Assembly: GCF_017348835.2 (NCBI RefSeq) | Contig: NZ_CP071375.1 | Direction: 5' to 3' (one strand) | Source of the DNA: Escherichia coli | GTDB taxonomy: Bacteria > Pseudomonadota > Gammaproteobacteria > Enterobacterales > Enterobacteriaceae | Length of the DNA: 64,000 nt | The notes under the pieces: generated by a model | Told to the model about the DNA's origin: nothing | What the model saw: only the letters and a program-made list of their open reading frames with translations | Database searches by the model: none | Part shown: positions 1 to 62,346 of the stretch, in pieces | Numbering within the stretch: position 1 is the stretch's first letter | Layout of the letters: each line of letters opens with the position of its first letter | Position numbers and translations under genes: made by a program

Positions 1-952
1 TCAGTGTCAAAACCCGGTTTAAAGTAGCGCTACTCATTGGCGCATCGGAATCGTACCGCGAAGGAAGGATAAAATCAGAGCTACCGGCAAAGGTTTTGAG
101 AGCAATCATAATATCCATTGCCTGTCTGGAAAGAAAAACCAAATGTGGATTACGTCGTTTCATCCTTTCCTTTGGTATCGTCCATAATGCCTCACTAAAA
201 TTGATCTCGTTCCAGGTTGCGTTAGTAAGCTCACTTTTACGTACCATCGTTAACAGCAAAAGTTTAACCGCTGCTCTGATTGATGGCGTCGTTCCTACCC
301 GTTCCATGTACCGATACATCAGACCAATTTCAATTGGCGTCAATGCCCTGTCTCGAGGCTCAAATTTCGCTATGCTTGCAGGCCGTACCAGATCAGCAGG
401 ATTCTCCACCTTCTGACCGCGCTCAATAGCCCAGCGATAGACTTGCAATACAATCTCTCTGGCGTGTACAGCTGTCGCTGGTGCCCCTCTCTCGACAATG
501 TTATCGGTTAATGCGCGTAAGTCTTCATGTGTAATCTCACTAAGTTTCTGCTGGGCAAATTTTGACTTCAACTCCCTTTGATATACCGAACGCCGCATAT
601 CACGCGTCGATTCAGCCATTTGATAACCGCGTAACCATTTCTCAGTCCACGCACCAAAAGTCTCCGCATCTTTAATACGCGCTTTATCTCTGGCTTTTTC
701 CCTCGCAGGCGATATTCCACTGGCAACCATTTTTTTGGCTTCATTGAGCCGTTCACGCGCTTCTGCAAGCGTGATCCCTCCAACACCATAGCGGCCAAAA
801 ATAACAGTCTCCTGTCTTCCGTTTATTGAATAGTTATAACGAAATGAAATAGTTCCAGCCGGAGTGACCGCAACATACAGACCATCACGGTCATTAACTT
901 TATAGAGTTTCTCCTTCGGCTTAAGGTGACGCAGCCTGGTGTCAGTCAACAT
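1..952 (-). CDS. P4-type tyrosine integrase, 5' part only (start codon at 950-952; 3' end lies beyond base 1)
   Basis: Hand translation of the minus strand from 952 gives an open frame with no stop to base 1: MLTDTRLRHLKPKEKLYKVNDRDGLYVAVTPAGTISFRYNY..., matching the N-terminal arm-binding region of P4-like integrases. Not in the ORF track because the frame runs off the window. Confidence 0.75.
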   Translation of the reverse strand, partial: MLTDTRLRHLKPKEKLYKVNDRDGLYVAVTPAGTISFRYNYSINGRQETVIFGRYGVGGITLAEARERLNEAKKMVASGISPAREKARDKARIKDAETFGAWTEKWLRGYQMAESTRDMRRSVYQRELKSKFAQQKLSEITHEDLRALTDNIVERGAPATAVHAREIVLQVYRWAIERGQKVENPADLVRPASIAKFEPRDRALTPIEIGLMYRYMERVGTTPSIRAAVKLLLLTMVRKSELTNATWNEINFSEALWTIPKERMKRRNPHLVFLSRQAMDIMIALKTFAGSSDFILPSRYDSDAPMSSATLNRVLTL

Positions 953-1175
953 GGTTTATTGTTTTCCTTTATCAAAAATACCATGTTGTAAAAAATTCAG
1001 AAAAGTTGTTTAACTATCTGTTTTTAATTGAGTTATAAAAAAAATACCATAACTCAACCGAAATTTATCACATGGTACTTTTTCAAACCTGAATTCGAAA
1101 CCAGAGAGTACCATCAAAAATTCCATTGAAAAAACCGTGCTTCCCGTTGCTAACAGCTGCCAGAAAGTGCCAGAC

Positions 1176-1208
1176 ACAAAAACAAAAAAGCCCGCAGTTA
1201 CGCGGGCT
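1176..1208 (-). terminator. Rho-independent terminator of guaA
   Basis: GC hairpin agcccgcagttacgcgggct followed on the minus strand by a U-run, about 50 nt after the guaA stop. Confidence 0.7.
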
Positions 1209-1256
1209 TAGAGGTACTTTACTGCTTTTACGTGCAGGCTGTTGCCAGACGTTAAA

Positions 1257-2834
1257 TCATTCCCACTCAATGGTAGCCGGCGGCTTGCCGCTGATGTCAT
1301 ACACCACGCGGGAAATACCGTTCACTTCATTGATAATGCGGTTGGAAACGCGACCGAGGAAATCGTACGGCAGATGCGCCCAGTGTGCGGTCATAAAGTC
1401 GATGGTTTCGACAGCACGCAGAGAGACAACCCAGTCATACTTACGACCATCGCCCATTACGCCAACGGAACGTACTGGCAGGAAGACGGTGAACGCCTGG
1501 CTGACTTTGTCGTACAGGTCCGCTTTACGCAGTTCTTCAATGAAGATGGCGTCAGCACGGCGCAGCAGGTCACAATACTCTTTCTTCACTTCACCCAGAA
1601 CACGAACGCCGAGGCCTGGTCCCGGGAACGGGTGACGGTACAGCATGTCGTACGGTAGACCCAGCTCCAGACCAATCTTACGCACTTCGTCTTTGAACAG
1701 CTCTTTCAGCGGTTCAACCAGGCCCATCTTCATCTCTTTCGGCAGGCCGCCCACGTTGTGGTGAGATTTGATGACGTGTGCTTTACCGGTTGCAGACGCC
1801 GCAGATTCGATAACGTCAGGGTAGATGGTGCCCTGTGCCAGCCACTTCACGTCTTCCAGTTTCAGCGCTTCTTCATCGAATACTTCAACGAAAACGCGAC
1901 CGATGATTTTACGTTTTGCTTCCGGATCGTTTTCGCCAGCCAGCGCTGACAGGAAGCGATCTTCTGCCGGAACGTGAACAATGTTCAGACCAAAGTGATC
2001 GCCAAACATATCCAGAACCTGCTCTGCTTCGTTGAGACGCAGCAGGCCGTTGTCGACGAATACGCAAGTCAGGTTTTTACCGATAGCGCGGTGCAGCAGC
2101 ATTGCGGTTACGGAGGAATCCACACCACCAGAGAGGCCGAGGATGACTTTATCGTCGCCTACCTGCTCGCGGATGCGAGCTACAGCATCGTCGATAATTT
2201 TCGCTGGCGTCCACAGGGCTTCACACTGGCAGATATCACGCACAAAACGCTCCAGCATGCGCATACCCTGGCGGGTGTGAGTCACTTCCGGGTGGAACTG
2301 TACGCCATAGAAGCGTTTTTCTTCGTTAGCCATAATGGCAAACGGGCAGCTTTCGGTGCTGGCTACGGTGACGAAGTCGGACGGGATAGCGGTAACTTTA
2401 TCGCCGTGGCTCATCCAGACATCGAGCAGCGGTTTACCGTCTGCGGTCAGCGCATCTTCGATACCGCGAACCAGTGCGCTGTCGTTTACGACTTCAACCT
2501 GCGCGTAGCCAAATTCACGTTCGTTAGAGGCTTCAACGTGACCGCCCAACTGCATTGCCATGGTCTGCATGCCATAGCAAACGCCGAATACCGGTACGCC
2601 TGCTTCAAAGACATACTGCGGCGCACGCGGGCTGTTTTCTTCAGTAGTACTTTCCGGGCCGCCGGAAAGAATAATGCCGCTTGGATTGAAGTCACGAATT
2701 TGTGCTTCTGTCACATCCCACGCCCACAGTTCGCAGTAAACACCCAGCTCACGCACGCGGCGCGCAACCAGTTGAGTGTACTGAGAACCGAAGTCCAGAA
2801 TGAGGATGCGATGCTTATGAATGTTTTCCGTCAT
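1257..2834 (-). CDS. guaA: GMP synthase (glutamine-hydrolysing)
   Basis: 525-aa [25 protein letters not shown]... to ...PPATIEWE; glutamine amidotransferase plus ATP-pyrophosphatase layout. Confidence 0.97.
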
Positions 2835-2902
2835 TGACGCTTATTCCGAGGCAAGTGAAACAGATAATATAAATCGCCCGACATGAAGTCGGGCGAAGAG
2901 AA

Positions 2903-4369
2903 TCAGGAGCCCAGACGGTAGTTCGGGGACTCTTTAGTAATGGTCACGTCGTGAACGTGGCTTTCCTGAATGCCCGCACCGCTGATACGTACAAACTCCG
3001 CTTTAGTACGCAGTTCGTCGATAGTACCACAGCCGGTCAAACCCATACAGGAGCGCAGGCCGCCCATCTGCTGGTGAATGATCTCTTTCAGGCGACCTTT
3101 ATAAGCTACGCGACCTTCGATACCTTCCGGCACCAGTTTGTCGGCAGCGTTATCGCTCTGGAAATAACGGTCAGAGGAACCTTTGGACATCGCGCCCAGG
3201 GAACCCATACCACGGTAAGATTTGTAAGAACGGCCCTGGTAGAGTTCGATTTCACCCGGAGATTCTTCAGTACCCGCCAGCATGGAACCTACCATCACCG
3301 CGCTTGCGCCAGCGGCGATAGCTTTGGCGATGTCGCCGGAGAAGCGAATACCACCATCTGCGATAACCGGAATACCGGTGCCTTCCAAGGCTTCAACTGC
3401 GTCAGCAACGGCAGTGATCTGCGGAACACCTACGCCAGTAACGATACGAGTCGTACAGATAGAACCAGGGCCGATACCGACTTTAACCGCGCTGCAACCA
3501 GCTTCTGCCAGAGCGCGTGCACCTGCAGCTGTTGCCACGTTGCCGCCGATGATTTGCAGATCCGGATATTTAGCACGGGTTTCACGGATACGCTGCAAAA
3601 CGCCTTCTGAGTGACCGTGGGAGGAGTCGATCAGCAGAACGTCAACGCCAGCGGCAACCAGCGCGTCAACACGCTCTTCGTTACCCGCACCTGCGCCAAC
3701 TGCAGCACCAACACGCAGACGGCCTTGCTCGTCTTTACAGGCGTTCGGTTTACGTTCCGCTTTCTGGAAATCTTTCACGGTGATCATGCCGATCAGGTGG
3801 AATTCGTCATCAACCACCAGCGCTTTTTCAACGCGTTTTTCGTGCATTTTTGCCAGCACCACTTCACGGGCTTCACCTTCACGCACGGTGACCAGACGCT
3901 CTTTCGGCGTCATGTAAACGCTAACCGGCTGGTTCAGGTCGGTAACAAAACGCACGTCACGACCGGTGATAATACCCACCAGTTCGTTTTCTTCGGTAAC
4001 GACCGGATAGCCCGCAAAACCGTTACGCTCGGTCAGTTCTTTCACTTCGCGCAGCGTCGTGGTTGGCAGAACAGTCTGCGGATCAGTCACCACACCAGAT
4101 TCGTGTTTTTTCACACGGCGAACTTCTTCTGCCTGGCGTTCAATGGACATGTTTTTGTGGATAAAGCCGATACCGCCTTCCTGAGCCAGAGCAATAGCCA
4201 GGCGCGCTTCCGTTACGGTATCCATTGCTGCGGAAAGCATAGGGATATTCAGACGAATAGTTTTCGTCAGCTGGGTGCTGAGGTCAGCAGTATTCGGCAG
4301 AACGGTAGAATGAGCAGGAACGAGGAGAACGTCGTCAAACGTCAGAGCTTCTTTAGCGATACGTAGCAT
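2903..4369 (-). CDS. guaB: IMP dehydrogenase
   Basis: ORF track frame 2903..4438; start trimmed to [16 protein letters not shown] (488 aa). CBS domains and catalytic [11 protein letters not shown] loop present. Confidence 0.95.
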
Positions 4370-4500
4370 GGGCAATATCTCGACCAGAGTGGTTAATAAA
4401 TATTGCCGCGGCATTATACAGAGCGTAACCGATTGCATCTACCCCTTTTTGCAAAAAATGCTTGCTATCCCCGAAGGGCGGGTTACTATCGACTGAATAA

Positions 4501-5907
<1,407 letters not shown>

Positions 5908-5975
5908 GCCGGAAAAAAGGCGCCAGCATCGCATTAGGCAATAGCGCCCAGGCTACGCCAAATGCGCTCCCCTCG

Positions 5976-8900
5976 TCACTGGAAACAAGTAACCAGACCA
6001 GGTTTATTGGCTAACGTGATACAACAATCCTCTGTGCCAGTGCTCTCGTCCATCCCACACCGTTGAGAGGACAAGTAAGGGAAACTTGGCGAAGCTGGCC
6101 ATCCCAGCGAATTAAACACAGTATACAATGTCTCTAACTCATTGTATGTCGGTGCATTTTCTATATTTCCACACTGCTTCGAGATATCCCATTTGCTGGC
6201 ATCAGTAATATGCGCAGAAGCCCAGTTTTCGTAGTTAATAATCGGTGAGGATACGGGATTGGCCCCGGACGGTAATTCAGTTGTCAGTATCGGTCGATGT
6301 AATGTTTTTCCATTCACCACTGCCGTGTCTGCCATATGCCCCCAGAAGTGAGCAGAAGATACATTTGGGCTGGTCAATACGGTGAAAATAGTGTCCATCA
6401 TTGCAGTCACTGTTGGGTATTTATCCAGCGTTACCGTCAGCGGCATTTTATAACCCGGCGTATTGTCCTGACGAACAGTAAAGTTTGCCGTGCCGTCTGC
6501 CCCCGTCACGCCACTGATCTCGTTCCCACTAACCGCCAATAGGGTAGCCGCCCCCGATGATGGCTGGATGGTAATATCATCCATAGCCGCCACATCGCCA
6601 TATAGCGTCGCCCCACTATTACGCGGAGAGGCATCACCACGTCGCAGAGTAAACGCCACATTTGGCACAGGTTTCCCGGCGCTGTCTTTCACCGTCACGG
6701 TGACTGGCATTGCCTCGCCCTTCTTCACTTTCGCCGCCTGAGCGGTGGAGTCAAATGCCGTTGACGTCAGGGTGACGGTAGAAACCGTTGAGTGAGGGTG
6801 CACCAGGCACGCCTGGAAGGCGCGGCTTTTAGATACAGTCACAAGTTGACCTGTGTTGAAGTCAAATGATTCACAAGAATTCGCGCCCGCAGGACAATCT
6901 GCATTTGTCCACCACACATAGCTATTCTGTTTCACCGGCCAGCCAATCTCATTGACGATAGAGCCATTCGGATAGCGGTTGTATAAAGATTGAAGCTCAT
7001 CCAATGATGGATATCGTGCGCTTTCACAAGGGATAAGCTCCGGCAAATATCGCTGGGTAATATATGGCGCAGGCCAGCTTTCATTATTTATATTCACTTT
7101 AGTGAGCGAATAACCGCCACCGCTGGTTGCCCCCATTTCGGCCCACAGTTTCATCCGCTCAAACTGCGTTCCGTCTGCTGAGCTTACCGTTTCTGGCATA
7201 TGTCCCCAGAAGTTGGCTTTTGGCGTATCCGGGCTTGTTACTACGGTATACATCAGGTCGAGATCTGACTTTACCCCTGTTTCACGTGCAAGCGTCGCCG
7301 TAAACGGTGTTACCAGTCCCCAGGTATTATCCTGCGTAGCGGTTAACGTGATGATGCCATTACCGTCCGTAACCCCGTTCCAACTGGCGTTATCATCTGC
7401 AAATTTGTAATTGGCTTGCGCAACCGGCGTCAGGAACTGTAGCAGCAGATCATCTGCTGTCGAGCTTGTGAAATCACTCGGCGTGCGCACTTGTGCTGTC
7501 GCACGCGACAACCTGACGCTTTCATAGGCGGCAGGTCTGCCCGCATCATCCGTGACCTTGATAGTTAACGGTATTGATACGCCCTTCTTCGCCCATGCAG
7601 TCGGACGGTTGTCGTTGATGCCTGTTTTGTCCGCATTCAGCAACGTAGACGTCAACTCAATCGTCGTTGCCTCAGTGTGCGGGTCAACCAGGCAGAGCAT
7701 TAAATTGCCCGCCGTCGATGTTGTACTTTCGTTGCGGATAGCACCGCTCATCAGATCAAGCACCTGGTTATACCATGTTGAACTTGAAACAGTTTGGTCG
7801 TACGCCCACCAGTAATTACCTGCGTTAAGAGGCAGCCCCAAATCAGTTTCCAGCGCACCATTTGGATGGTCGTTGTAAAGCCCCATTAGCTCACTACTGA
7901 AGGGTTGATAAGGCGAAGTGCAGCCTGAGATCGAACTGTTCGCTTTGTTGGTTGCATCTGGTCGCGCCCAGTCTTCATTGTTGATATTAAAGGACGCAGT
8001 CCCGGACAACTCGGCCTTCAACTGTGGTCGCCTGAACGCGACGCCCGCGCTGCTGGTAAAGGTTTCCGGCATATGGCCCCAATAGTTAGCCTTCGGCGTA
8101 TCCGGGCTGGTGATCACTGTGAAAATCGCACTTAAAGATTGTGAAGCAATCGAACCATCGTCCAGTTTCGCCAACAACGGAATACGAACGCCATATCCTT
8201 TATGGAACTGATATACCGTCAACGTCGCCGTTCCGTCAGGCCCGGTAACACCATAAAAATCATCGCCCTCATTAATGATTGGCGTTTGATGATTGGATGA
8301 ATCCGTGATGTAAATTAATTTCGACTGGTAATCTGAACTTACTACATTCTGACGGCTAAGCGTCGCACCATGTTCCAGCAAGAAGGGTACATTACCCAGC
8401 AGATTTCCCTGCGCGTCGCGCGTTGTGACCTTAATGGTGATGAAATCATGATCAACTTCATAATTGGTTTTTGCTTTAACCCCCTGATTACCATCATAAA
8501 CCTGCGCTTGTTCAGAGGTTAACTCAATTGTGGCGACCTTCGGGTTAGCCGTTGTCTGGCAGGTTAAATACCCCCCTTTTGACTCCAGTACACTGCTGGT
8601 GCCATTACTCAGTTGCACACCAAGGTAATTACGATTACTTACGCTGGCACCATCGGCGGTGCTGGTGTCATAGACTTTTAATACTGGCCAGCCGTCTACA
8701 GCATGACCGCCCCAGCTTGTCGATAACGTGGTTAATGCATCTTTGGTCGGGATATTATCTGCGCCACAACCGTTATTTTTCGCATTCTTACTTGCCTGCG
8801 CTTCAGTAAACAGCGCCCAAATTTCGTTATCCTCTTCCGGGCTTTTACGTCCATTGCCGGGAGAACCACTCAGTTCTGAAAACAGGATCGGTCGCTTAAA

Positions 8901-11900
8901 CGTCAATCCTCCCGCTGTGAGTGTTTCTGGCATATGCCCCCACATTTTTGCCTTGTTAGTGTCAGGGCTGGTGACAACGGTAAAAATAGTGTCTAACGAT
9001 GCGTTTTTTGTTGGATCGGAATAGAGCGCAGCGGTAATTGCCGTTTTCGTGCCGTGAGTGTCCGGGCGGGTGATGGTGAGAATTTTGCTACCGTCACTCC
9101 CCGTTAACCCAGCGTATGCACTGGCAGTATCGTTAAGCGACATTTCATCTGACATTCCGGCATCCACCACGACCGGTGAAACGATCCCGTCACCGCTTCC
9201 TGCAATATGCTTTTCATTGCTACGGGTGTAACCATCGCCACGCTTCAGGGTAAAGGGCATTCCCGGCATCGGGTTACCCGCCGTATCTTTCACCGTGACT
9301 TTTACCTGTAGCGTTTCACCCTTTTTCAGTTTCGCTGCATTAAGCGTGCTATTCCACTGTGCCTGATCGACCACTTCCAGCGTAATGGTGCTGGCGGGTG
9401 GGTTAGCGTCCTTCAGGCAGGAGATATAAATTTCCGAGGAACTTGTTTGCACGTTTCCGTTATTCAGCCAAACCGCTGCAAAGTGCGGGACTTTATCGGT
9501 AGGCGTGCTACTCCAGTAAGGCTGGCGCTGAGTCGGCCAACCATGCTCAGTTTGAATCGCGTTATTACTGTTGGCGCGATAGAGCGCATCAAGCTGTGAC
9601 TGGCGTGGCACTTTATTGGCCTCACAACCGCCCACCGCGCTATTTTCGATCTCGGACTGATCGACGCGTAACCAGGTTTCATTATTTTCATCAAAGGGAC
9701 GCCCGGAACCGCTTACCTCCACCGCCAGTTTGGGGCGATTAAATGTAATAGAATCCACAGTTATCGTGTCATCCATGTGCCCCCACATTCTCGCTCCCAT
9801 CACATCCGGGCTGGTGGGAACCGTAAAGATTACATAGTAGTTAATGGTATTCGGCAGAACAGAATTAGGAGGCGTGACAACAAGTCGCGTTCTTAAGCCA
9901 ACGCCTTGTGGCTGCTCAACAACAACGGTTGCCTGCCCCTGTGCGTCTGTAATACCGGAGTAAACCATTGAGGATTGTGAGGTACCGTACTGCGTCCCAT
10001 TCAGGGTTATTGCGCCGTTACTGGGATCGGTAAACCCGGTTGCGCTTTCTTCACGGTCAAGACTGATATCTTTGGTAATAGTAAAAGCCGTGAACGGCAC
10101 CCGCTCGCCATTCAGAGCATTAACTGTGCGCACCGTCATGGTGATTTGTTCACCGACTTTCGCCCGTGCCAGGCTGCCCGAGGTAGTATCACGATCGGTT
10201 GTCACTTCAACCTTCGCCACCATCTCATTACCAGAGCACGAGAGATAGTTTTGTTTAAAACCGCTATAACTGTCGACGTTCCCTGTTCCGAGGTTTACCG
10301 ATGAATGCGTTGTCTGCTCCGCGGCAGTTAAATAGTCCTTTACTGCGGTTGGCCAGCCATACTCAGTCCCGATGATATTGCCAGGGTAAGCCGAATACAG
10401 ACTTTCCAGTGAGATCTCACGCGGTATATGCCCCGTGCCGCATTCTGCCTGCATACTGGTATTTTGATCGAATAACGCCCAGTCTTCGTTATTTTCCCGT
10501 ACTGTGCCTATTTCATGCGTGGTTTCAGCCGCCAGCAGCGGTCGTTTATATAAACTGCCAGCATCAATAATGCCGTGCATGTGGCCCCACATCCGCGCAT
10601 ATTCGCTGTCCGGACTGGTCACCACCGTAAAGACCACATCTTTGGCATCTTCAGCAGTGAAATTACTGCGCATTTTCGCCGTAATATGCGTTTTAACGCC
10701 TGCGCCGTCAGGCTGCGTCAGCAGCAGAGTTGCCTGACCATTGACGTCGGTCATTCCCTCATAATTATGATCATCTACCTTTTGCAGGTTGGTGCCGCCG
10801 GAAATTTGTACCGGATGCGCTTCCCACGCCGGATCGGTTTGATTTTTGCGGTTAACGCCGTCATCGAGATGCAGCGAGAAGTAGTAATAAGCCAGCGGCT
10901 GATTGTTATTTTTTTTATCGGTAATGGTCAGGCGTATCGTAGTGCTGTCACCGACCTCTGCCTTCGCGGCATTTATACTTTCATCAAAGTTACTGGGCGT
11001 GAGCACCAACTCTGGCTCAACATCGGGTTCTGCTTTATCCACACAGCTCACGATATACTTTGTACTGTCTGGTTTTTGCGCTTCGCTGCGGTTAGACACA
11101 TCAGCCGCGTGGTGCTGCCCGGTACTTCCTGCCAGAGATGACCAGTAATAATCACCCTGCATCGGCCAACCGGCGGTCTCCTGAATAGAGTTAGGGATCA
11201 CCGTAGCCAGCGCGCCAAACTGGCGCATGCCAGGCAAAATATCGCAGTGGTTATCTGCGCCACTCCAGGTGAAGGTCGACCAGGTTTCACCGTGATCGTT
11301 CACACTGCCATCTTCGTTATCAACTTCCGCCGCCAATTTCGGACGACTAAAGGTGTAATTCATGGCCGTCAGGGTTTCCGCCATATGGCCCCACATATTG
11401 GCCTGCGGGGCATCCGGGCTGGTGAGTACAGTAAATATCACCGCCGTTTCACTGGTTTGCGAGATGCCAGAAAGGCTGACCACCAGCGGCGTTTTGACAC
11501 CTGGACCATTGGGCTGCGTCACCGTGACGGTAGCTGCGCCATCAGCATTAGTCGTGCCCCGATACTCCGTTGCTGTGGTGGTGAGTTCAGTGGTATCAAG
11601 ATTGACAGGTGAGGTGTTATTCACCACTCCCTGGCGGTTTTCAGCATCTTTTCGTTTGATAACAAAAGGGATATTGCTCGCAATATTACCTTCACAATCT
11701 TGGGTGGTTACGGTTAAGGTGATTGAACCATCGACAGTAGTCTTTGCCGCTTGTAACGTATCGTCATAGCCACTGGCGCTAATTGTCACCAGGTCGCCCT
11801 GGGCGGGAGCAATATTCAGCGTCACTTTATGTTCAGCCAACGGCACCGTCCCCTGATTAGGCACACCAGTTAACGTGTAGAGGTAGAGTAAAGGTAGCGC

Positions 11901-12386
11901 TTCCTGCTCATTGATTCGCGGCCACGCCACCAAAGAACGCCCTGCCAGATTCTGCGCGCAGAAAGAGCGGTCCGGGCGCGGTTGTGGGCTGAGCGGCGTA
12001 TCTGGCGTCGCGGCATCCGTCCACACAAGAGATACAGCAGGAGGCGTCTGGTTTTGCCAGCCTAGCACGGGGGGATTAGAAAAAAGATCGCCTTCAGGAT
12101 CGTGAGGGTTAACCAGAATCATTCTCGCCGCTGTGTCATCAACACTGAATGCGCTGGGTTTTACAGATGCCTGAATGTCGTAGGTTTTGCTCGGATCAAG
12201 CTGAACGCTTCCCTGATAAACGGGTACGCTGGCGCTCTCTGCCCCGGGCACTGTGCCATTGATTGCGTCGGTCGAGATGCCAGTTTGTTGCCACTGGCCA
12301 CCTTTTAATACTGCCCCAACCTGAAAAGAGAGGAAGAGCAGAAAAACCGCCGTTATCGCTTTTATCAGTTTCAAAGTCCCGTCCAT
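5976..12386 (-). CDS. ratA: Giant repetitive secreted surface protein with seven Ig-like modules (RatA-like, CS54-island type)
   Basis: 2136-aa ORF with N-terminal signal peptide; an approx. 290-aa module recurs seven times, each ending in a T-V-(V/L)-T-S-P-D ... (M/F/Y)-W-G-H-M signature. Position next to sinI/sinH between xseA and yfgJ matches the Salmonella CS54 island. Confidence 0.7.
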
Positions 12387-12520
12387 GATTGAAACCTGCC
12401 CGTTTAAAGTTATTTTTTCACTTCAACCCACTTTGCTTAACGCTGGCTAAGCAAAGTGTGCGGAGAAGCACCATTCCCTTGCTGAAATGACCAGATTGTT
12501 GACAAAGTGCGCGTTATTCA

Positions 12521-12620
12521 TGCCGGATGCGGCGTTAACGCCTTATCCGACCTACAAAATCGTGCAAATTCAATACATTGCAGGAACCATGTAGGCCTGA
12601 TAAGCGAAGCACATCAGGCA
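12521..12620. repeat. REP elements (BIME-like pair)
   Basis: tgccggatgcggcgttaacgccttatccgacctac and inverted partner gtaggcctgataagcg...catcaggca match the E. coli REP consensus. Confidence 0.5.
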
Positions 12621-12676
12621 GTTTTGCCTTTGTCATCAATCTGACCATTCCCTTGCGGGAATGGTGCTGGTAAAGA

Positions 12677-13642
12677 TTATTTTCTCTGGTAATCGATGGA
12701 CAAACCGTAGCCCTGAACACCATCCGCGCCAAGGGTGAGGCCACCTTCGCTGTAGTCGAACGCAGTTTTCGCTTCGGCGTTGGTAACTGGGATAACCAGG
12801 TCGCTGTTGTTGTAGCTCGGGTTGACAATCCCACCGTTGGTACGCAGTTGCAGACTGGTACCGGTAAAGCGCCAGCGGTAGTTGTACTGGCTGGTAACCT
12901 CTTCGCCAGTGTCGTAGGAGCCGTTGCTGTTTTTATCTTTCCACAGCATGACCTGATAAGTGGTATTGGTTTTGAGTTTGGTTTCTTTGCCCAGCAGGTT
13001 GGTGTTAACACCCTGCTCATGAATGACAACTTTAACCGCATCGTCAAATACCGGACCTTCCGGAATATCATCGCTGTCAGAACCACCGCCCGCGTTGGTG
13101 GAGAGGTCTAACAGGATCAGTTGTTCTGCAACGTTAGGATCACCGGTCGTGGTGGTCGGGGTAATTTTCAAACCGATGTAGCGATCGGCATCCGCTGCGG
13201 CAATGGTATAGGTGTCACTGCCCGTTGTACCGATCTCTTTCGGATCACCCCCCGCCTGGTCGCTATAGCTCATCCATTGCAGCGTCGCTTTGGTTGCAGT
13301 GTTGTTGTCGTCAAGGTCGCCCTGGGTATCGCCAATGGCCCAGTTTGCAGTTAACTTGTCACCAATATGAAATTGCTTCTCGCCATCGGTTGAAGCAGAA
13401 CGTCCGCCACGATCAACGGTAATGGACACATGAGATTTATCGGCATCAGTCGTTTCTGACGCGCTACGGGTGATCCACGGCACGGTACCCTGAATCGTTC
13501 CGGTCGTTTGCGTCTCTGACTGCCACTGGCCCGCTCTAAGGTTGCCCTGCCCTTCTGCCATGGCGGCAGGCACTGCGCAGTACCCCGCTAAAGCCAGCGC
13601 CAGCGCGACTTTAGTCATCGGTCGCTTTAAATAGTGTTTCAT
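12677..13642 (-). CDS. sinI: Secreted protein, SinI-like (CS54-island type)
   Basis: 321-aa ORF with signal peptide MKHYLKRPMTKVALALALAGYCAVPAAMA; C-terminal approx. 90 aa are homologous to the C-terminus of the adjacent SinH-like protein. Confidence 0.6.
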   Translation of the reverse strand: MKHYLKRPMTKVALALALAGYCAVPAAMAEGQGNLRAGQWQSETQTTGTIQGTVPWITRSASETTDADKSHVSITVDRGGRSASTDGEKQFHIGDKLTANWAIGDTQGDLDDNNTATKATLQWMSYSDQAGGDPKEIGTTGSDTYTIAAADADRYIGLKITPTTTTGDPNVAEQLILLDLSTNAGGGSDSDDIPEGPVFDDAVKVVIHEQGVNTNLLGKETKLKTNTTYQVMLWKDKNSNGSYDTGEEVTSQYNYRWRFTGTSLQLRTNGGIVNPSYNNSDLVIPVTNAEAKTAFDYSEGGLTLGADGVQGYGLSIDYQRK

Positions 13643-13697
13643 TCAACTCTCTCCTTGATTAATTTCCAGCGGCTGGCCGATCGGCCATTACGCCGAT

Positions 13698-15878
13698 CTA
13701 GTGCTTGCTGTAAACCACACGTAATCCATACCCCTGCACGCCATCCTCTTTTTGGGCACCAAATTTCTGTACCGCTTCCTCGTTAGTGGCAGGGATGACA
13801 ATATCTTCATTACTGGTATTCGATTGCGCACCGGTGTAGCCATTGACGCTGTGTCCGGTAAATTCCCACTGGTAGTCGTATTGCGCCATTTCTTCTTCCG
13901 TCAGTTTTTCCGACTGCTGGAAAACGCCATCTTTGTTGACATCGCGCCACAGGACAAAACGATAGGCGTTATCAACAGGCAAATGCTCTTTCTCATTGCC
14001 GATAAGATTGATGGGGTTAGTCGCGGATACACGGTAGATAAAGGCATTAACATCGTTGCCCCCCGCGCCGAGGAAAGTCACATCGACATAGTTACTATCG
14101 TCATACGGTGCGGCCTTTGCTTTCCAGCGGAAGGTGCCGGGCAAAGTACTGGAGAGGGTGACGGTTCCTTTCTCTTTATCTTGCTTCGCGATAAAGACGC
14201 ACGGGTTATCGGTCGAGCAGGGTTTATTGGTGAGGGTGACTTTTTTATCCTGAGCATCGTAAAGCTGCGGACTCAGGCCATCTTCCGGCAGCGCATTACC
14301 GTTACGGTCAGTGTCATCACCAAAGCTATCGGTAACATCGAGATCCATCACCACGCCATCGACGCCATCCGCCTGAGCGCTGGCTTCATGACTGTGATTG
14401 TTTTCATCCGGCACATCCGCAATGTTGTTGACGATCAGTTCAATTTTGCGATCCTGCTGAACGGTGATTTCCACCACGCCGGAGTTTTGCCGGTTGCCTT
14501 TTTCATCTTCCAGAGCCAGACGCACGCGCCAGGTATTGAGTTTTTCCTGTTCGGCGGGATCAGAGCTGTACTGCCAGGCTGGCAGCACCAGATTCCAGTG
14601 GTTGTTGTTCCCTTCCGTGAGGGTATTTTCTTTGATAACCGGCATCACCAGAGTACGCGCAGCGTTGTTTCTCGCCTGCCAAGAGGCGACGACAATCTTA
14701 TAGTGATGATTGATTAGCGCATTGATTGTCCACTTACATTTTTCCAGCCCTACCGCAGCTTCGGGGGTGTCCTTGATGACACAATCCGGGTGTTCATTGG
14801 TGGCGTCAGCCTTCAGCCACAACGTAACGTCGAGAGGATCTTTTTCTTTATATTCCAGAACAATAAAATTATTGCGCTCAACAAAGTCATGGCGGCTGCC
14901 CATCAGCGAGTGAGCTGCTTTGACGTTATCGCTATTCAGTTGATCTTTTAGCGGAACACCGAACTGATAGTTAATCGTGGCGTTAACGCTAAGATCACTG
15001 TTATCTCCGGTACCTGCTTTATAATCCGTCCCGACCGTCAGTAACGGAACGGGTTGATAGTTCACGCCAAGCGTCACTGCATAGGGATCTTTTTCTAAAT
15101 TATCGGTGCCGAAGAGCGCCACTTCGTCACCATAATATTGCTCGAAAACAATTTTGCTCCCCAACTGAGGATAAGAAGGAAGCCTGGCTTCCGCCCGGAC
15201 ATCCCAGCCACGTGCGGGGCGTTCTAAATAGAAATCAAAATCTTTTGAATCTTTCCACTCTGAAAGCGGATGATAATAGTTACCAGAAAATTTTAAATAA
15301 TCCGTCCAGGCTTCTGTTCCCAAACCTAAACGGCGATGTCCGCGGGTGAAATCATAATCATAAAATATATTCCCCCCCAGAAGCCATTTATCAAAATTAT
15401 GTCTTACACCTAAACCTATATTACCTATCGTGCGTTCTTCTTTTCGTTGCGCAGAAAACTGACTGAAATAGACTGTGCTCTGATTGTCATACCAGGGGAC
15501 AAAATAGTCGATTGAACTGCCGTCCAGATCGCCACCCTGACCGATGGAAAGGTTAGAGCGAACTTTACCATAAGGAGAAAGCGCACCTTCGATATAAGAC
15601 TGTGCAGATGATGTGATTTGCCCTTGCAGATAGCTTCTCGCCTGGGATTCAAGAGCTTCTGGAGTCAGGTTCTCAAAGCCCTGCTGGGCGGACTCGGTAA
15701 CGTAATTGGCACCACGTTCCTTGAAAGATTTGCCTTTGTTACTTTGTTCCTCTTGTTGAGCCGTTTCGCTTGCCAGATCAGGTAATGAAGATTCGCTTTG
15801 CTTAATATTTATCTCCGGTGCCGCATAAGCAGCACCAGAAATAACGATTAGCGTTATATAGCGAATCCATCGCAGCAT
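13698..15878 (-). CDS. sinH: Intimin/invasin-family outer-membrane adhesin (inverse autotransporter), SinH-like
   Basis: 726-aa ORF with signal peptide; aromatic-rich N-terminal region typical of the intimin/invasin beta-barrel, then extracellular domains; AT-rich upstream region. Confidence 0.7.
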   Translation of the reverse strand: MLRWIRYITLIVISGAAYAAPEINIKQSESSLPDLASETAQQEEQSNKGKSFKERGANYVTESAQQGFENLTPEALESQARSYLQGQITSSAQSYIEGALSPYGKVRSNLSIGQGGDLDGSSIDYFVPWYDNQSTVYFSQFSAQRKEERTIGNIGLGVRHNFDKWLLGGNIFYDYDFTRGHRRLGLGTEAWTDYLKFSGNYYHPLSEWKDSKDFDFYLERPARGWDVRAEARLPSYPQLGSKIVFEQYYGDEVALFGTDNLEKDPYAVTLGVNYQPVPLLTVGTDYKAGTGDNSDLSVNATINYQFGVPLKDQLNSDNVKAAHSLMGSRHDFVERNNFIVLEYKEKDPLDVTLWLKADATNEHPDCVIKDTPEAAVGLEKCKWTINALINHHYKIVVASWQARNNAARTLVMPVIKENTLTEGNNNHWNLVLPAWQYSSDPAEQEKLNTWRVRLALEDEKGNRQNSGVVEITVQQDRKIELIVNNIADVPDENNHSHEASAQADGVDGVVMDLDVTDSFGDDTDRNGNALPEDGLSPQLYDAQDKKVTLTNKPCSTDNPCVFIAKQDKEKGTVTLSSTLPGTFRWKAKAAPYDDSNYVDVTFLGAGGNDVNAFIYRVSATNPINLIGNEKEHLPVDNAYRFVLWRDVNKDGVFQQSEKLTEEEMAQYDYQWEFTGHSVNGYTGAQSNTSNEDIVIPATNEEAVQKFGAQKEDGVQGYGLRVVYSKH

Positions 15879-25486: not shown

Positions 25487-26341
25487 TTATGGTGTTCTCA
25501 TCCCATAGCGATGACGTTGGCAATAAAGACAATTTTGCGCATTTTGCTGAAAAGTAAGAAAGGATTTTTGACAGGTTTTACAGACTTTGCGATTAGCATG
25601 AAGATTCACAATTTTTGCCGGTAGAATCGTCAATTCAACGGTCATTGCCTGATGAAAACAAACAGCAATACAATTTTGGCATCCGTTACACAAGGCATCA
25701 TTTATTTGTAAATGGCCTTCGTTAAGCGAAAAGACCTGTTGCTCGCAGGCCCGCCAGCATGCACCGCAAAGCTGACACTTTTGAGGATCCATCATCGGGC
25801 GAGCATCACTAATCTGGGGCCAAAAATAATGTAACCGACGTAATCCTGGTTGTATTTGTGTCATCTGAACATCCGCACGCTGCACATGGAACAAACGACG
25901 CCGGGAAACATTCACCTCACTGGTATGTGGAGATACCACAGACCAGCCTTCCTCGCCATATTGCCGTAAGCGTTCGTTTAACAGCAATAATGCGCGCTCC
26001 CATGCCTTCGCCTGACTCAGATCAATCGCGATCGCTGTGATCCCCTGCTCTTTATGCCATAGCAAAAGTTCTTCCAGCGTCGGCGCAATAGTGGTGAAAG
26101 GTGCGACCAGGGTGTGATTGCGAAAATAACGTAAAGGGGAATTAACGCCACGAATAGCCTCTTGCGGGCAAATAAACTGGCAAACCGCACACTCAATACA
26201 TTGTTCCGCGTCGACCGCTACGCCCTCTTCTGTCAGCGTTAGCGCCTGTGCCGGGCAAGCCTCGACACAGGCATGACATGTTGCAAAACGAAAGCGTTGG
26301 CGCGCGCATTCCGCGCCAATCGTTATGTTATGACTTAACAT
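25487..26341 (-). CDS. Poly-ferredoxin-like protein ([4Fe-4S] CxxCxxCxxxC motifs plus C-terminal CxxC...CxxC), last gene of the Dms-like operon
   Basis: 284-aa ORF with CIECAVCQFICP, CQLCGACWRAC, CNGCQNCIAVC and CKTC...CLYC; stop/start overlap with the upstream gene at 26341. Confidence 0.6.
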   Translation of the reverse strand: MLSHNITIGAECARQRFRFATCHACVEACPAQALTLTEEGVAVDAEQCIECAVCQFICPQEAIRGVNSPLRYFRNHTLVAPFTTIAPTLEELLLWHKEQGITAIAIDLSQAKAWERALLLLNERLRQYGEEGWSVVSPHTSEVNVSRRRLFHVQRADVQMTQIQPGLRRLHYFWPQISDARPMMDPQKCQLCGACWRACEQQVFSLNEGHLQINDALCNGCQNCIAVCFHQAMTVELTILPAKIVNLHANRKVCKTCQKSFLTFQQNAQNCLYCQRHRYGMRTP

Positions 26342-27162
26342 TAGCCGATACTAAAAAAGACAAAACGCAGCATAACTTCACTCCCCACTAGCATTACGCT
26401 ACCGAATAACGCCGCCGGGATATTCTTTTTACAACCACCGACAGCAAAGAACATCATCCCAATGACGGAAATTCCCCAGCTTAGTGTCAGTATGGGTTTT
26501 AACTGTCCCAGCATCGCTAATGGCGCATGTGGCAATGTGGCTATCTGCATCGCATTTGCCGTTAAATCCCCTATCCACAACGGCTGAACCAACAAGCGCA
26601 ACAGAACCAGGAGAGCGATCACCAATACGCATCCATTACGCAGGGCATCAATCTGCGGCAAAATTCCGCTAATACGAAACACGGCTACCAGCGCTGAACC
26701 GAGAATTCCCACTGTACCTAAGAACATAATCAGCGTGTTGTAATGCTGCCAGGTGATAATCGACGTATGGATGTAAACTTGCGCCATGCAGAAAACATCA
26801 ACAATCCCGACCACTGCCGCTAGCATAAGCAGGAGTTGCCAGCCGCCTTTGCGTAACATGACCAGTAATGTGGATAAACCCAATAGCGCCAGATACAGCG
26901 TACCAAAGATAATTTCCCGACTCAGCCATGAACTGGAAAAGTGACTTAGCGCATGCATCGCATTAAGTGGATAACCCAGGTGTAAGGTAGAAATCAGTAA
27001 CCCTACGGCCCCTGCCAAAAAAGCCAACAGTAATGGCGGCCGCATAACCGGGCGGGCGCTGGAGGTGATTAAAATATGACGATGAAGAAACGCCAGCCAC
27101 AGCGTCATACCGACCGATGCCTGTAACAACAGCGTAAAAGCCATTAACGGTAATTCATGCAT
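26341..27162 (-). CDS. DmsC-family membrane anchor subunit of a DMSO-reductase-type enzyme
   Basis: 273-aa polytopic membrane protein; N-terminus MHELPLMAFTLLLQ resembles the DmsC/YnfH start; overlaps the B-subunit stop by 8 nt. Confidence 0.65.
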   Translation of the reverse strand: MHELPLMAFTLLLQASVGMTLWLAFLHRHILITSSARPVMRPPLLLAFLAGAVGLLISTLHLGYPLNAMHALSHFSSSWLSREIIFGTLYLALLGLSTLLVMLRKGGWQLLLMLAAVVGIVDVFCMAQVYIHTSIITWQHYNTLIMFLGTVGILGSALVAVFRISGILPQIDALRNGCVLVIALLVLLRLLVQPLWIGDLTANAMQIATLPHAPLAMLGQLKPILTLSWGISVIGMMFFAVGGCKKNIPAALFGSVMLVGSEVMLRFVFFSIG

Positions 27163-27784
27163 GATGTGACGCCTCCTTTTCCGCGCCCTGATGCGGTTTA
27201 ATCACCAGATTTGGCTGCGTAATCGACGAATCAGGTAAACCTTTCACATCACTGACATCGCCATACTTTTCACGCAACTCATCAATAGGGCCGAACTTAA
27301 TCGCCCCCAACGGGCACGTTGCCACGCAAATGGGTTGTTCTCCTTTAGCTTGCAGATCAATACAGAAATCGCATTTCGACATCTGCCCGGTCTGCTCATT
27401 CATTTGCGGTGCGCCGTAAGGACAGGACCATGCGCAGTAACCGCAACCGACGCACTTATCAGTATTCACGCGCACAATACCGTCTCCGGGACGCTTATGC
27501 ATCGCCATCGTCGGGCAATTTTTGGTACAGATCGGATCCGCGCAATGGTTACAGGAAACAGAAAGGGTATAAGCAAAGACATTATGACTCACACCGCCCT
27601 CTCCAGTGGCGATAAAGCCACCGCCGTTCACTTCATACACGCGGCGAAAACGTCGCCCAACCTCAAGGTTGTTTTTGTCTTTACAGGCCACCTGACACGC
27701 TTTACAGCCAGAACAACGCGAAGAGTCAATAAAGAACCCTAATTGTTTGTCGCTGACAGATGCAAATTCTTTAAATTGGCTCAT
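27155..27784 (-). CDS. DmsB-family four-cluster [4Fe-4S] ferredoxin subunit
   Basis: 209-aa ORF with four Cys-cluster motifs (CKACQVAC, CNHCADPIC, CVGCGYCAWSC, CDFC...C); overlaps the A-subunit stop by 4 nt. Confidence 0.8.
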   Translation of the reverse strand: MSQFKEFASVSDKQLGFFIDSSRCSGCKACQVACKDKNNLEVGRRFRRVYEVNGGGFIATGEGGVSHNVFAYTLSVSCNHCADPICTKNCPTMAMHKRPGDGIVRVNTDKCVGCGYCAWSCPYGAPQMNEQTGQMSKCDFCIDLQAKGEQPICVATCPLGAIKFGPIDELREKYGDVSDVKGLPDSSITQPNLVIKPHQGAEKEASHHA

Positions 27785-30162
27785 GCTTTCTCAACCTCCA
27801 CCAGCATTGTTTGATGTGAATTCCCTTTCGCCAGCGCCGTAATGCGGGTCGAACTCAGTACATTGGCGCAGCCTCCGCGATCAATACCTTGTGCATCCGG
27901 TTGCCACCATGCCCCCGCCTGCATAGCAACTACGCCAGGGATGATACGGGGGGTTATTTCCACCGGGATAATGCTCACACCACGATCGTTATAAATTTTT
28001 ACGCTATCTCCTTCGACAATCCCGCGCTGTTTTGCATCTTGCGGATTCAGCCAGAGTTTTTGCGTCTGAACTTCTTGCAGCCACGGGTTAGCATACTGGG
28101 TGGAATTAGCACGGTTTTTCCCTTTCCAGGTGATGAGCTGCAACGGGTATTTCGCCGTCAGTTTATCTTCTGGCCCTTCAAAGGCAGGGACATAGTGCGA
28201 AAGCGCGGGAATTTCTGGATCTTGCATATCAAAAAGACGCTTAGAGAAGATCTCAATTTTGCCGGAAGGCGTCGGGAAAGGATTATTCTGCGGATCGCGA
28301 ATATTTGCTTCGAAAGCGATGTGCGGCGCGCTTTTGAAAAGATGTCGACGTGTTTTTTGCAGGGTCGCGAAGTCCGGCAAATTTTCATCCGGCATCGCCA
28401 GACGAGTTTGCTCCCAGATATGCTCGATCCATTGCTTCTCATCACGTCCTTGACTGAACTCGGCTTCGACACCCAGTTTTTTCGCCACGTCACGCAACCA
28501 GTCATAATCGGTGCGACGTTCAAACTCCGGCTCAATCAGTTTTTCTGACAGAATGAGATAGCTCGCCGTTCCCCATGTTTCGCCGATATTCCAGCGTTCC
28601 ATAAAGCTGGTTTCCGGCAGCAACACATCGGCATATTTCGCGCTCGGAGTCATGAACAGATCGCTGAGTACGATGAATTCTATTTTAGATTCGTCTTCAA
28701 GGAGCTTCGCGGCCTGGTGGACGTCCGGGTTCTGGTTCGCCAGATAATTACCTGCCAGTGAGAACAGCAGGCGGATATTACTGTCGAGTTTATCGACACC
28801 TTTAAGCCCATCTTGTGGCGTAACTTTAGAAGCATCATCCGCCGCCTGCATCCAGTTCATAATCGAGATTTTCGCTTGTACCGGATTTTCTGGCATATCT
28901 GGTCCAACGCAGAATTTACGATTAGAACTACCGCCATAACCTGCCGCCCAGCCACCTTTGATGCCGACGTTACCGGTAATCGAGGCCAGTAAAGTTGAAC
29001 CTCGGGCGGTGCGTTCGCCGCAAATATGTCGCTGCGGTCCCCATCCCTGAATCAACGCTGCGGGTTTCGTGTTGGCGTAATCACGGGCCAGTTGACGAAT
29101 AGTTTGCGCTGGAACGTGGGTAATTTTTTCTGCCCATTCCGGCGTTTTGTGTATCCCATCTTTTGCGCCAAAAAGGTAGGCAACCAACGATTCGTTGGCT
29201 GGTACGCCTTCCGGCATGGAGTTTTCATCAAAACCGAGAGTATATGTGTCGATAAATGTCTTATCATGGAGATTCTCGCTGATAATGACGTACATCATCG
29301 CGTCCATCAACGCATTGTCCGTGGTCGGCAACAGCGGGATCCACTGATCGGCAAGTGAAGATACGGTGTCGGAATAGCGCGGATCCACCACGATAAAACG
29401 TGTACCGTTTTGCTTCATTTTTTGAAAATAGTAATTGGTGTGACCGAATATGGTTTCCGTTGGGTTATGCCCCCAGAGAATCACCAGTTTGGTATCCAGA
29501 AGAGTATCCATCGAGTTACCGCTCGCGGCCACGCCATACGTGTAAGGCGTGGCCGCCGCAGTATTACCCAGACTAACTGAGTGATAATATTCAAGATAAC
29601 CACCGGTTAAATTTAACAGCCGACGCGCCATCGCATCGCCAGAAAATGTTCCACCAGAAACAGCCGTCCCGACATGGACATAACGTGAAGCCGGGCCATA
29701 TTGTTGCGTGATCCTTTTCAGGTTATCGGCAATTAAGGTCGTCGCCTCATCCCATGAAATACGCTCAAATTTCCCCTCGCCCCGTTTACCGACCCGTTTC
29801 ATCGGATATTTCAGGCGGTCTGGATGATAAACAAATTTACGATAGCCGCGACCACGAACACAGGCGCGCATAATCGGCATTTGTGGATCCAATTCGTTAT
29901 CGGGAAGCGTGGTAATTTGCGTCACCACACCGTCGCACATATGCGCCCGAATATCGCACTTACCACCGCAGTCAAATGTGCTACAGGTGGGCACGACTTT
30001 ATCAGCTACTGGAGCTGTAACTTCTGGCGACGCATCTGGGGATTGCGCCTTTGCGGTAGAAGAAATAAAAGGCAAAGTGATAAGCGCGGAAGTCGCTTGT
30101 AAAAAACTACGTCGTGATACTTGCGGAAATGTAATGCGTTCCTTTTCGTCTGGCGTATCCAT
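27781..30162 (-). CDS. Tat-exported molybdopterin oxidoreductase catalytic subunit (DMSO reductase family, DmsA/YnfE-like)
   Basis: 793-aa ORF with twin-arginine signal (SRRSFLQATSAL...AKA) and an N-terminal Cys cluster (CSTFDCGGKCDIRAHMCDG) typical of the FS0-binding region. Confidence 0.85.
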   Translation of the reverse strand: MDTPDEKERITFPQVSRRSFLQATSALITLPFISSTAKAQSPDASPEVTAPVADKVVPTCSTFDCGGKCDIRAHMCDGVVTQITTLPDNELDPQMPIMRACVRGRGYRKFVYHPDRLKYPMKRVGKRGEGKFERISWDEATTLIADNLKRITQQYGPASRYVHVGTAVSGGTFSGDAMARRLLNLTGGYLEYYHSVSLGNTAAATPYTYGVAASGNSMDTLLDTKLVILWGHNPTETIFGHTNYYFQKMKQNGTRFIVVDPRYSDTVSSLADQWIPLLPTTDNALMDAMMYVIISENLHDKTFIDTYTLGFDENSMPEGVPANESLVAYLFGAKDGIHKTPEWAEKITHVPAQTIRQLARDYANTKPAALIQGWGPQRHICGERTARGSTLLASITGNVGIKGGWAAGYGGSSNRKFCVGPDMPENPVQAKISIMNWMQAADDASKVTPQDGLKGVDKLDSNIRLLFSLAGNYLANQNPDVHQAAKLLEDESKIEFIVLSDLFMTPSAKYADVLLPETSFMERWNIGETWGTASYLILSEKLIEPEFERRTDYDWLRDVAKKLGVEAEFSQGRDEKQWIEHIWEQTRLAMPDENLPDFATLQKTRRHLFKSAPHIAFEANIRDPQNNPFPTPSGKIEIFSKRLFDMQDPEIPALSHYVPAFEGPEDKLTAKYPLQLITWKGKNRANSTQYANPWLQEVQTQKLWLNPQDAKQRGIVEGDSVKIYNDRGVSIIPVEITPRIIPGVVAMQAGAWWQPDAQGIDRGGCANVLSSTRITALAKGNSHQTMLVEVEKA

Positions 30163-38652: not shown

Positions 38653-38667
38653 GTATTTTACAGGCAA

Positions 38668-38698
38668 TAAAAAACCGCCGAATTTGGCGGTTTTTTAT
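38668..38698 (+). terminator. Bidirectional rho-independent terminator after sseA
   Basis: aaaaaaccgccgaatttggcggtttttt: hairpin flanked by an A-run and a T-run, usable from either strand. Confidence 0.7.
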
Positions 38699-38994
38699 TG
38701 CTGGTCTGGTTCGCGGCCTTTCCAGCAGGTTGACTTGTGTTGCCGGAGCAACGCAGGCACCCCACAGTGTTGAAATACTCTCTTTTATGCCTGGCTGTGT
38801 CAAGATAATAAACAGAGTAATTATTCAAACATGAGAGTATTATTCTTAATGGCCCTTTTCGCCGTCTCGCAAACGGGCGATGGCTTTAGGAAAGGATGTT
38901 CCATGACCGTAAATACAGGCACCCCACAGTGCTTGCTATCGCGGCAATATCGCCAGTGGTGCTGTCGTGATGCGGTCTTCGCATGGACCGCACA

Positions 38995-39120
38995 ATGAAG
39001 ATACGGTGCTTCTGTATCGTACTTATTGTTTCTGGTGCGCTGTTAACCGAGGTAAATAATAACCTGAGTCTCTCCGGCGACAATTTACTGGTGGTTAACA
39101 ACCTTCAGAGCAGCAAGTAA
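38995..39120 (+). CDS. Small hydrophobic protein, candidate type I toxin (RyfA/TimP-like), copy 1
   Basis: 41-codon ORF MKIRCFCIVLIVSGALLTEVNNNLSLSGDNLLVVNNLQSSK followed directly by a terminator; an in-frame ATG 12 nt upstream is an alternative start. Confidence 0.45.
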   Translation: MKIRCFCIVLIVSGALLTEVNNNLSLSGDNLLVVNNLQSSK

Positions 39121-39152
39121 GCCCGAATGCCGCCCTTTGGGGCGGCATATTT
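39121..39152 (+). terminator. Rho-independent terminator of toxin transcript 1
   Basis: gcccgaatgccgccctttggggcggcat followed by attttag. Confidence 0.5.
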
Positions 39153-39156
39153 TAGA

Positions 39157-39237
39157 TTATCCGATTCTGTTTAAAGTCACGCAAAAAACCACCCCAGCGA
39201 CGTTCATAGAATGGCGCAATATGTTCGATATTAAAAT
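39157..39237 (-). pseudogene. Duplicated 3' fragment of sseB (about 26 codons)
   Basis: Minus-strand translation ...IEHIAPFYERRWGGFLRDFKQNRI* matches the SseB C-terminus; homology to 39830..39907 stops abruptly at 39237. Confidence 0.55.
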
Positions 39238-39351
39238 GACCTGGCTTATTAGTCCGAATTCAGACAAATATAAACAAATCCCGCTCAATATTAAAAATAC
39301 TAACCGGTAAAAGATATTACTTAAACATGTAAATTCACTTTCTTTAAGCAA

Positions 39352-62322: not shown

Positions 62323-62346
62323 CTTCAGGTTCCTCGGTAAAATTCA

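Follow-up and report, generated by a model that had tools for sequence, protein, structure and literature searches.

The left edge of the window, the 64,000-nucleotide stretch of Escherichia coli DNA analysed here, is very probably the guaA-proximal edge of an integrative mobilizable element (IME) of the GIsul2/PIME family, PIME1 subfamily. The edge lies at positions 1-1256, and the element survives as an IS-truncated remnant of 9.4 kb. Both the island type and the guaA hotspot are already known, and the present case is a decayed copy. Our own data provide the identity and domains of the integrase, the target site and the gene content, as well as the deletion and the direct repeats of relatives. 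Recombination by the GIsul2 integrase and IncP-dependent excision of PIME1 are taken from the literature.

An ATG at 952-950 opens a minus-strand reading frame that meets no stop before base 1. The 317 codons in the window (1-952) are the 5' 80% of an integrase gene of 396 codons. The earlier note had this gene start 305 bp after the guaA stop and run off the window, and this holds, as the gap measures 304 nt (953-1256) and the frame is open to base 1. Two E. coli isolates from pigs, PE164 and F2_81, match window 1-1300 at 100% identity. Window 1-21300 matches PE164 exactly, and the rest differs at 2 positions in 42.9 kb. The PE164 locus (L001, 41.3 kb) reaches 20 kb beyond base 1, and a window position equals the L001 position minus 20000. 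In PE164 the full int gene occupies L001 19762-20952 and encodes 396 aa, the first 317 of which are the window translation. A frame that ends just outside the window as a remnant with no adjacent island is ruled out, since the 396-aa ORF heads a set of island genes.

The 396-aa protein was classified by its domains. Pfam matched the tyrosine recombinase domain (Phage_integrase, PF00589, 4.7e-22, residues 204-375), an arm-binding domain (Arm-DNA-bind_3, PF13356/DUF4102, 8e-19) and a central domain (Phage_int_M, 5.5e-11). Structure matches for the N-terminal domain were 3ju0 (3e-13) and 3jtz (4e-11), both arm-binding domains of CP4-like integrases, and the C-terminal half aligns with structures of the lambda Int catalytic domain. 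All catalytic residues (R238, K265, H335, R338, H361 and Y370) are present in the full protein. They were placed by motif, not by structure superposition, and the H-to-Y spacing is 9, as in lambda Int. The portion within the window holds the arm-binding domain, the central domain, R238 and K265, while H335, R338, H361 and the nucleophile Y370 lie past base 1. The closest NCBIfam family, NF007246 (PRK09692 integrase), scored 148.8 bits. This is far under its curated cutoff of 434, so the protein is P4/CP4-57-type by its three-domain architecture and related to the named family, of which it is no member. The ORF beside guaA is a P4/CP4-57-type tyrosine integrase, as first proposed, and not a chance frame. 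Two plus-strand ORFs antisense to int (96-416 and 280-429) have no support and were treated as chance.

The guaA gene (minus strand, 1257-2834) is intact and encodes GMP synthase, 525 aa long and ending normally in ...ATIEWE*. Integration is targeted to the 3' end of the gene. In K-12 MG1655 the order is yfgG-yfgH-yfgI-guaA and there is no integrase downstream of guaA, as the earlier note stated. Homology of the window to K-12 breaks at the guaA stop; it begins, within a few bases of that stop, at a 16-bp repeat, AAATCATTCCCACTCA. This repeat (1254-1269) overlaps the last four guaA codons plus the stop codon and constitutes the integrase-proximal att site, attL in the GIsul2 nomenclature. Within it the core GAGTGGGA, at which the GIsul2 integrase has been shown experimentally to recombine in the guaA 3' end (PMC9376610), reads TCCCACTC on the plus strand at 1261-1268. 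The earlier note proposed guaA itself as the target given the lack of a nearby tRNA gene. Both points stand up: ARAGORN found no tRNA or tmRNA in window 1-8000 or in the 41.3-kb PE164 locus, which excludes a tRNA as the integration target, and the same guaA-end repeat flanks the island in intact relatives.

Alignments to K-12 and GIsul2 show that the spacer (953-1253) derives from the island and forms the arm of the attachment site on the integrase side. It bears no relation to the spacer between yfgI and guaA in K-12 and shares with the GIsul2 arm conserved motif islands amid diverged sequence. One such motif, (A/G)TACCAT, occurs four times (978-984, 1044-1050 and 1108-1114 on the plus strand, 1072-1078 on the minus strand). 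The 64-kb window has 14 copies in total, and nowhere else in it do four fall within 301 bp. Three of the four are exact in the GIsul2 arm and the fourth has a single base changed. One copy also lies ~75-90 bp from the distal att repeat in the strains Br_167_kylling (L003) and WP2-S18-ESBL-08 (L004). The copies are candidate arm-type binding sites for the N-terminal domain of the integrase. A second motif, TGCCAGA, forms three boxes (1158-1164, 1168-1174 and 1243-1249), the last of them 5 nt from the att repeat. The cluster is found once in the 64-kb window, and in GIsul2 two of the boxes are exact and one has a single change. They may be sites for an accessory protein, either AlpA/excisionase or core-proximal.

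A terminator scan placed a strong rho-independent terminator for guaBA in the same spacer (AAGCCCGCGTAACTGCGGGCTT followed by a T-run, minus strand, 1178-1209). Its hairpin (1209-1188) and T-run lie on the guaA strand and are conserved in GIsul2. In the intact island of L003 the native guaA hairpin (7520-7550) has stayed on the yfgI side, beside the distal att site. An Rfam scan of window 1-1500 yielded sub-threshold matches only, to Leu_leader and to Trp_leader, the latter at 30.6 bits where the gathering score is 41. Both cover the terminator hairpin, and the presence of an RNA family was rejected.

Beyond base 1 the PE164 annotation supplies the body of the island that the earlier note had expected there. 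The order is yfgG, an IS3-family element, trbL, trbJ, traJ, a 253-aa ORF, a RepA helicase, an AlpA-like HTH regulator, luxR, a 209-aa ORF, int and guaA. The remnant spans L001 11859-21268, with just its last 1,268 bp within the window. The luxR-family gene (L001 17460-18431, plus strand) is divergent from alpA (L001 17152-17382, minus strand), and trbJ lies at L001 13625-14419. All five genes of the core set used as a search criterion for the family (int, alpA and repA together with trbJ and trbL) are present. An oriT region was located upstream of traJ at L001 14850-15000, with 17-nt inverted-repeat arms at 14934-14970 followed by ...GTCCTGCTCTGCGAGGCTG. When aligned with the oriT regions of IncP plasmids it is of the IncP type, with a conserved nic region. 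Just downstream of the repA-linked 253-aa ORF there are three to four tandem 21-bp repeats (CGGGCCG...; L001 15480-15560 and L004 14698-14781), which are probably the iterons of the island oriV.

This neighbourhood bears on whether the integrase might come from a P4-like satellite, a PICI or a prophage remnant instead of a conjugation-dependent island. The P4/CP4-57-type architecture, the best NCBIfam match being PRK09692, and the fact that phage satellites can share attB sites (bioRxiv 10.64898/2026.01.12.698999) all point in that direction. Against this, the PRK09692 score is far below its cutoff and the neighbours of int are repA, traJ, trbJ, trbL and an IncP-type oriT. No capsid, primase-helicase or packaging genes were found beside int in L001, L003 or L004, and the variant island of ET220, described below, is likewise without phage or satellite genes. 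A prophage or satellite origin, which we regard as extremely improbable, was rejected on this gene content of conjugation, replication and regulatory genes only.

The same backbone is present in Br_167_kylling and WP2-S18-ESBL-08, where it sits between guaA and an intact yfgI and continues into cargo that varies. In L003 the island has an exact 16-bp direct repeat, AAATCATTCCCACTCA, at both ends, 13,683 bp apart; in L004 the end repeats match at 17 of 18 bp and are 17,557 bp apart. ET220 (L012) carries an 18.13-kb variant with the same att repeat and a non-homologous central module. Intact E. coli copies contain higA in the backbone and defence genes as cargo, including helicase-DUF2290, PsyrTA and PDC-M68/ABC-three-component genes. 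An integrase that is 59% identical lies ~300 bp downstream of guaA in Ralstonia, which indicates that the target is conserved across classes.

The copy in the present genome has lost its far boundary. In a pairwise BLAST comparison, PE164 has a 1313-bp IS3-family element (L001 10546-11858, ~8.1-9.5 kb left of window base 1) in place of L003 6136-11858. The element has ends TGAACCGCCCCGG... and resembles IS629/IS1203. Lost with the replaced 5.7 kb were the distal att site and the cargo, yfgH and yfgI, and higA in its 3' part. No target-site duplication was found in the IS flanks, and the IS insertion and the deletion could be separate events. The junction between IS and island occurs in 2/5426 genomes, PE164 and F2_81 only. 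The att core is present in one copy in the window and one copy in L001 (20 kb either side). Extension past base 1, which was to reveal both the island body and its distal end, was thus successful for the body but not for the boundary, and a direct repeat of the guaA 3' end was found in the intact relatives (L003, L004 and L012) but not in the present genome. The missing repeat is explained by a secondary deletion and not by a different origin; that the distal end was deleted is suggested by comparison with the other strains.

These data also address the possibility that the island at the window's edge is intact and at present mobile, able both to excise and to transfer. In favour of it, int is a full-length ORF with every catalytic residue, alpA, luxR, repA, oriT, traJ, trbJ and trbL are annotated as intact, and close relatives are themselves intact. 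However, 20 kb to either side contain only a single att copy, an IS without target duplication stands in place of the distal end, yfgH and yfgI, and higA is truncated. We therefore consider a mobile island very improbable. With one att site left, the remnant of our preferred reading should be unable to excise by attL x attR recombination, and its mobility by this route has presumably been lost.

The distribution of the island was surveyed in 5426 complete E. coli genomes. The integrase gene was found at >=95% nucleotide identity in 120/5426, always adjoining guaA. Beyond PE164 and F2_81, 118 genomes match window 1-1300 at 95-99.3%. The adjacent alpA-luxR module is retained, at the megablast level, in 33/120 int-bearing genomes, and RHB23-C07 is not among these 33. 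ABWA45 (L011) keeps int together with IS debris only. The yfgI-guaA junction is uninterrupted in 4570/5426 genomes, and ~16% carry an insert; that of TB06052 consists of two DUF262 genes without an integrase. Island decay is common at the guaA locus, and int often persists where the other island genes have gone.

Such decay raises the question of whether the int left in the remnant has become domesticated, or has no role any more and is an inert pseudogene-in-waiting. The retention of the alpA-luxR module in just 33/120 genomes and the state of ABWA45 are consistent with either. So is a scan with the sigma-70 consensus, which found no promoter-like site upstream of int in window 900-1300 (in the whole island the scan gave 24 sites against 15.6 expected, an uninformative excess). 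On the other hand, the arm sites, the core and the ORF itself are intact, and the ORF shows 97-99% conservation between strains. We felt that this outcome was fairly unlikely. It is compatible with a decayed PIME1 island and not exclusive of it.

Other features were noted elsewhere in the window and in PE164. Between xseA and yfgJ (5976-15878) lies a block encoding a 2136-aa adhesion-domain protein, a SinI-family protein and the inverse autotransporter SinH; it is absent from K-12, L003 and L004. A four-gene cluster for a reductase of the DMSO/selenate family (25487-30162) separates pbpC from ndk. It is not at that position in L003 or L004, where pbpC abuts ndk. Positions 38664-39238 and 39348-39916 form an imperfect direct duplication of ~580 bp with ~85% identity, containing two timP small-toxin genes and an sseB fragment. 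In PE164, yphE (window 62325-63858) is annotated as frameshifted and pdeF (L001 7722-9965) as carrying an internal stop; both are possible pseudogenes.

GIsul2 is one point of comparison for the attachment mode. This 15.4-kb integrative element occurs in Shigella flexneri 2457T, Enterobacter cloacae and A. baumannii pAB3 (Nigro & Hall 2011; PMC9376610). Its integrase excises and integrates the element at a 19-bp attB in the 3' end of E. coli guaA, a reaction that needs int and the att sites (PMC9376610). The present island uses the same target and the same core, and leaves the guaA ORF intact. Identities to the GIsul2 (pAB3) proteins are 86.6-86.8% for Int, 79% for AlpA, 62% for RepA, 53% for TrbJ and 45% for TrbL, so the suggestion of a GIsul2-type attachment was well founded. 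From the 87% identity of the integrases and the junction sequences, the present integrase is predicted to be active on this target. The arms are alike as well, with the conserved terminator, the three TGCCAGA boxes and the four TACCAT sites, and both elements have a KorB operator at the trbJ 5' end.

The present island is nonetheless not GIsul2 in the strict sense, an assignment that was rejected because the defining cargo genes are absent. It is without sul2, ISCR2 (CR2), the ars operon, resG, repC and the internal attLR. The CR2-sul2 unit, ars, resG and internal attLR are absent from L001, L003 and L004, whereas pAB3 has them. It does have luxR, traJ together with an oriT, and a 209-aa ORF that lies between int and the regulators, none of which GIsul2 contains, and unlike GIsul2 it is IS-truncated. 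In GIsul2 (L005) an internal att-like site, GAGTGGGAGTGA, was seen at 28853, upstream of the ISCR2 transposase, in agreement with the published attLR.

The gene set corresponds better to the PIME family, ~1,100 elements defined by int, alpA and repA together with trbJ and trbL, in which divergent alpA and luxR are the hallmark of subfamily PIME1 (bioRxiv 10.64898/2026.01.12.698999). The type element, PIME1EcRHB23-C07, is a 22.2-kb E. coli element with no relaxase and an IncP-like oriT with a 17-bp inverted repeat, and the IncP plasmids pB10 and pKJK5 cause its excision, with no mobilisation (bioRxiv 10.64898/2026.01.12.698999). Like the type element, the present island is beside guaA, has int, divergent alpA/luxR, repA, traJ, trbJ and trbL, lacks a relaxase, possesses an IncP-like oriT with a 17-bp inverted repeat, and carries immune-system cargo in its intact copies. 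It belongs to the PIME1 subfamily, having been matched to the type element by the described gene set and hallmarks, not by sequence. The type element is described as intact, whereas the present copy is a remnant without the distal att site and cargo.

Two further groups of islands invite comparison. The IncP island of Brucella suis and Burkholderia glumae (PMC5704250) also has a tyrosine integrase at the guaA 3' end, IncP-related TraJ, TrbJ and TrbL, RepA and an antitoxin. It differs in having its own MobP relaxase and TraK and in its alpha- and beta-proteobacterial hosts, the likeness being one of description, not sequence (PMC5704250). The SGI1/MGI elements, which are IncC- or SXT-dependent IMEs, similarly combine an integrase, a mimic of oriT, a small number of mating-pore subunits and excision triggered by a helper. 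They have no sequence relationship to the island, target trmE/yicC and respond to another helper and activator (AcaCD).

The following course of events would account for the locus. A P4-like tyrosine integrase would recombine GAGTGGGA in the last guaA codons with the same sequence on the circular element. Insertion would restore the end of guaA, with the island providing a substitute terminator and the native guaA terminator staying with the yfgI side. Intact copies consist of 16-bp direct repeats enclosing int, alpA/luxR, repA with iterons, oriT with traJ, trbJ-(trbK)-trbL, higA and variable anti-phage cargo, and their induction and transfer would depend on IncP plasmids. In the lineage of the present genome the 1313-bp IS629/IS1203-like element would have taken the place of the distal 5.7 kb, leaving one att site.

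Operators are also shared between the island and IncP plasmids. TTTAGCSGCTAAA is the KorB operator OB of the IncP plasmid RK2 (PMC11790492). It occurs in the PE164 backbone at L001 14366, 15253, 18857 and 19693, three times exactly and once with a single mismatch, the chance expectation being an estimated ~3e-4 per 10 kb. The sites are located after int, in the long intergenic region past luxR, in the oriV/oriT region and at the trbJ 5' end; the nearest (L001 19693) is 307 bp left of window base 1. The ET220 variant has exact OB at the same four relative positions (L012 12814, 14042, 16936 and 17746) despite its non-homologous central module. GIsul2 (L005 21648) and a Vibrio relative (L007 21457) have one each, at the trbJ 5' end. 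The IncP plasmid p14EC001a has 13 OB sites, one of them at this same trbJ position, and DNA homology between island and plasmid starts exactly there. The KorA operator GTTTAGCTAAAC was not found in the islands at <=1 mismatch. KorB, KorA and their operators are unmentioned in the PIME preprint (bioRxiv 10.64898/2026.01.12.698999), and a literature search found no paper tying KorB to guaA islands. The islands may, as a family, be connected directly to the KorB system of IncP-1.

The Vibrio relative resides on pL29 (L007), a 29.7-kb 'plasmid' of Vibrio alginolyticus. Besides a guaA-type island that has a retron Eco8 effector, it contains genes of chromosomal type, namely yfgM, bamB-like fragments and a yfgJ-like zinc ribbon. 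Its appearance is that of an excised region or a chromosomal segment and not of a true plasmid.

Comparison of the transfer genes suggests which plasmids could act as helpers. Some ~110 enterobacterial IncP plasmids, the mcr-1 plasmid p14EC001a (87%) among them, encode a TrbJ with 85-87% identity to that of the island. For the tested IncP-1 beta and epsilon plasmids, which induce the element without mobilising it, the TrbJ identity is ~59%. For TraJ the identity is 60% with p14EC001a and 46% with IncP-1 beta, for which pNB8c was the comparison plasmid. The oriT inverted repeat differs from that of p14EC001a by one base per arm, while the IncP-1 beta repeat is unrelated; the nic region is common to all three. 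Judged on these sequences, the enterobacterial IncP-1 clade of the mcr-1 type (p14EC001a-like) may be the mobilising helper of E. coli PIME1. When such a plasmid is present, the stranded remnant, with int, oriT, traJ and operators, could serve as an Hfr-like chromosomal origin of transfer beside guaBA. KorB wiring, a p14EC001a-like helper and an Hfr-like remnant oriT taken together form a tentative reading, to which we give somewhat less than an even chance.

At the guaA hotspot, intact copies of the island bring in anti-phage systems. If confirmed, the KorB and helper data would address which plasmid mobilises E. coli PIME1 and by which plasmid factor these elements sense the helper, and would tie the guaA islands to the plasmids spreading mcr-1.
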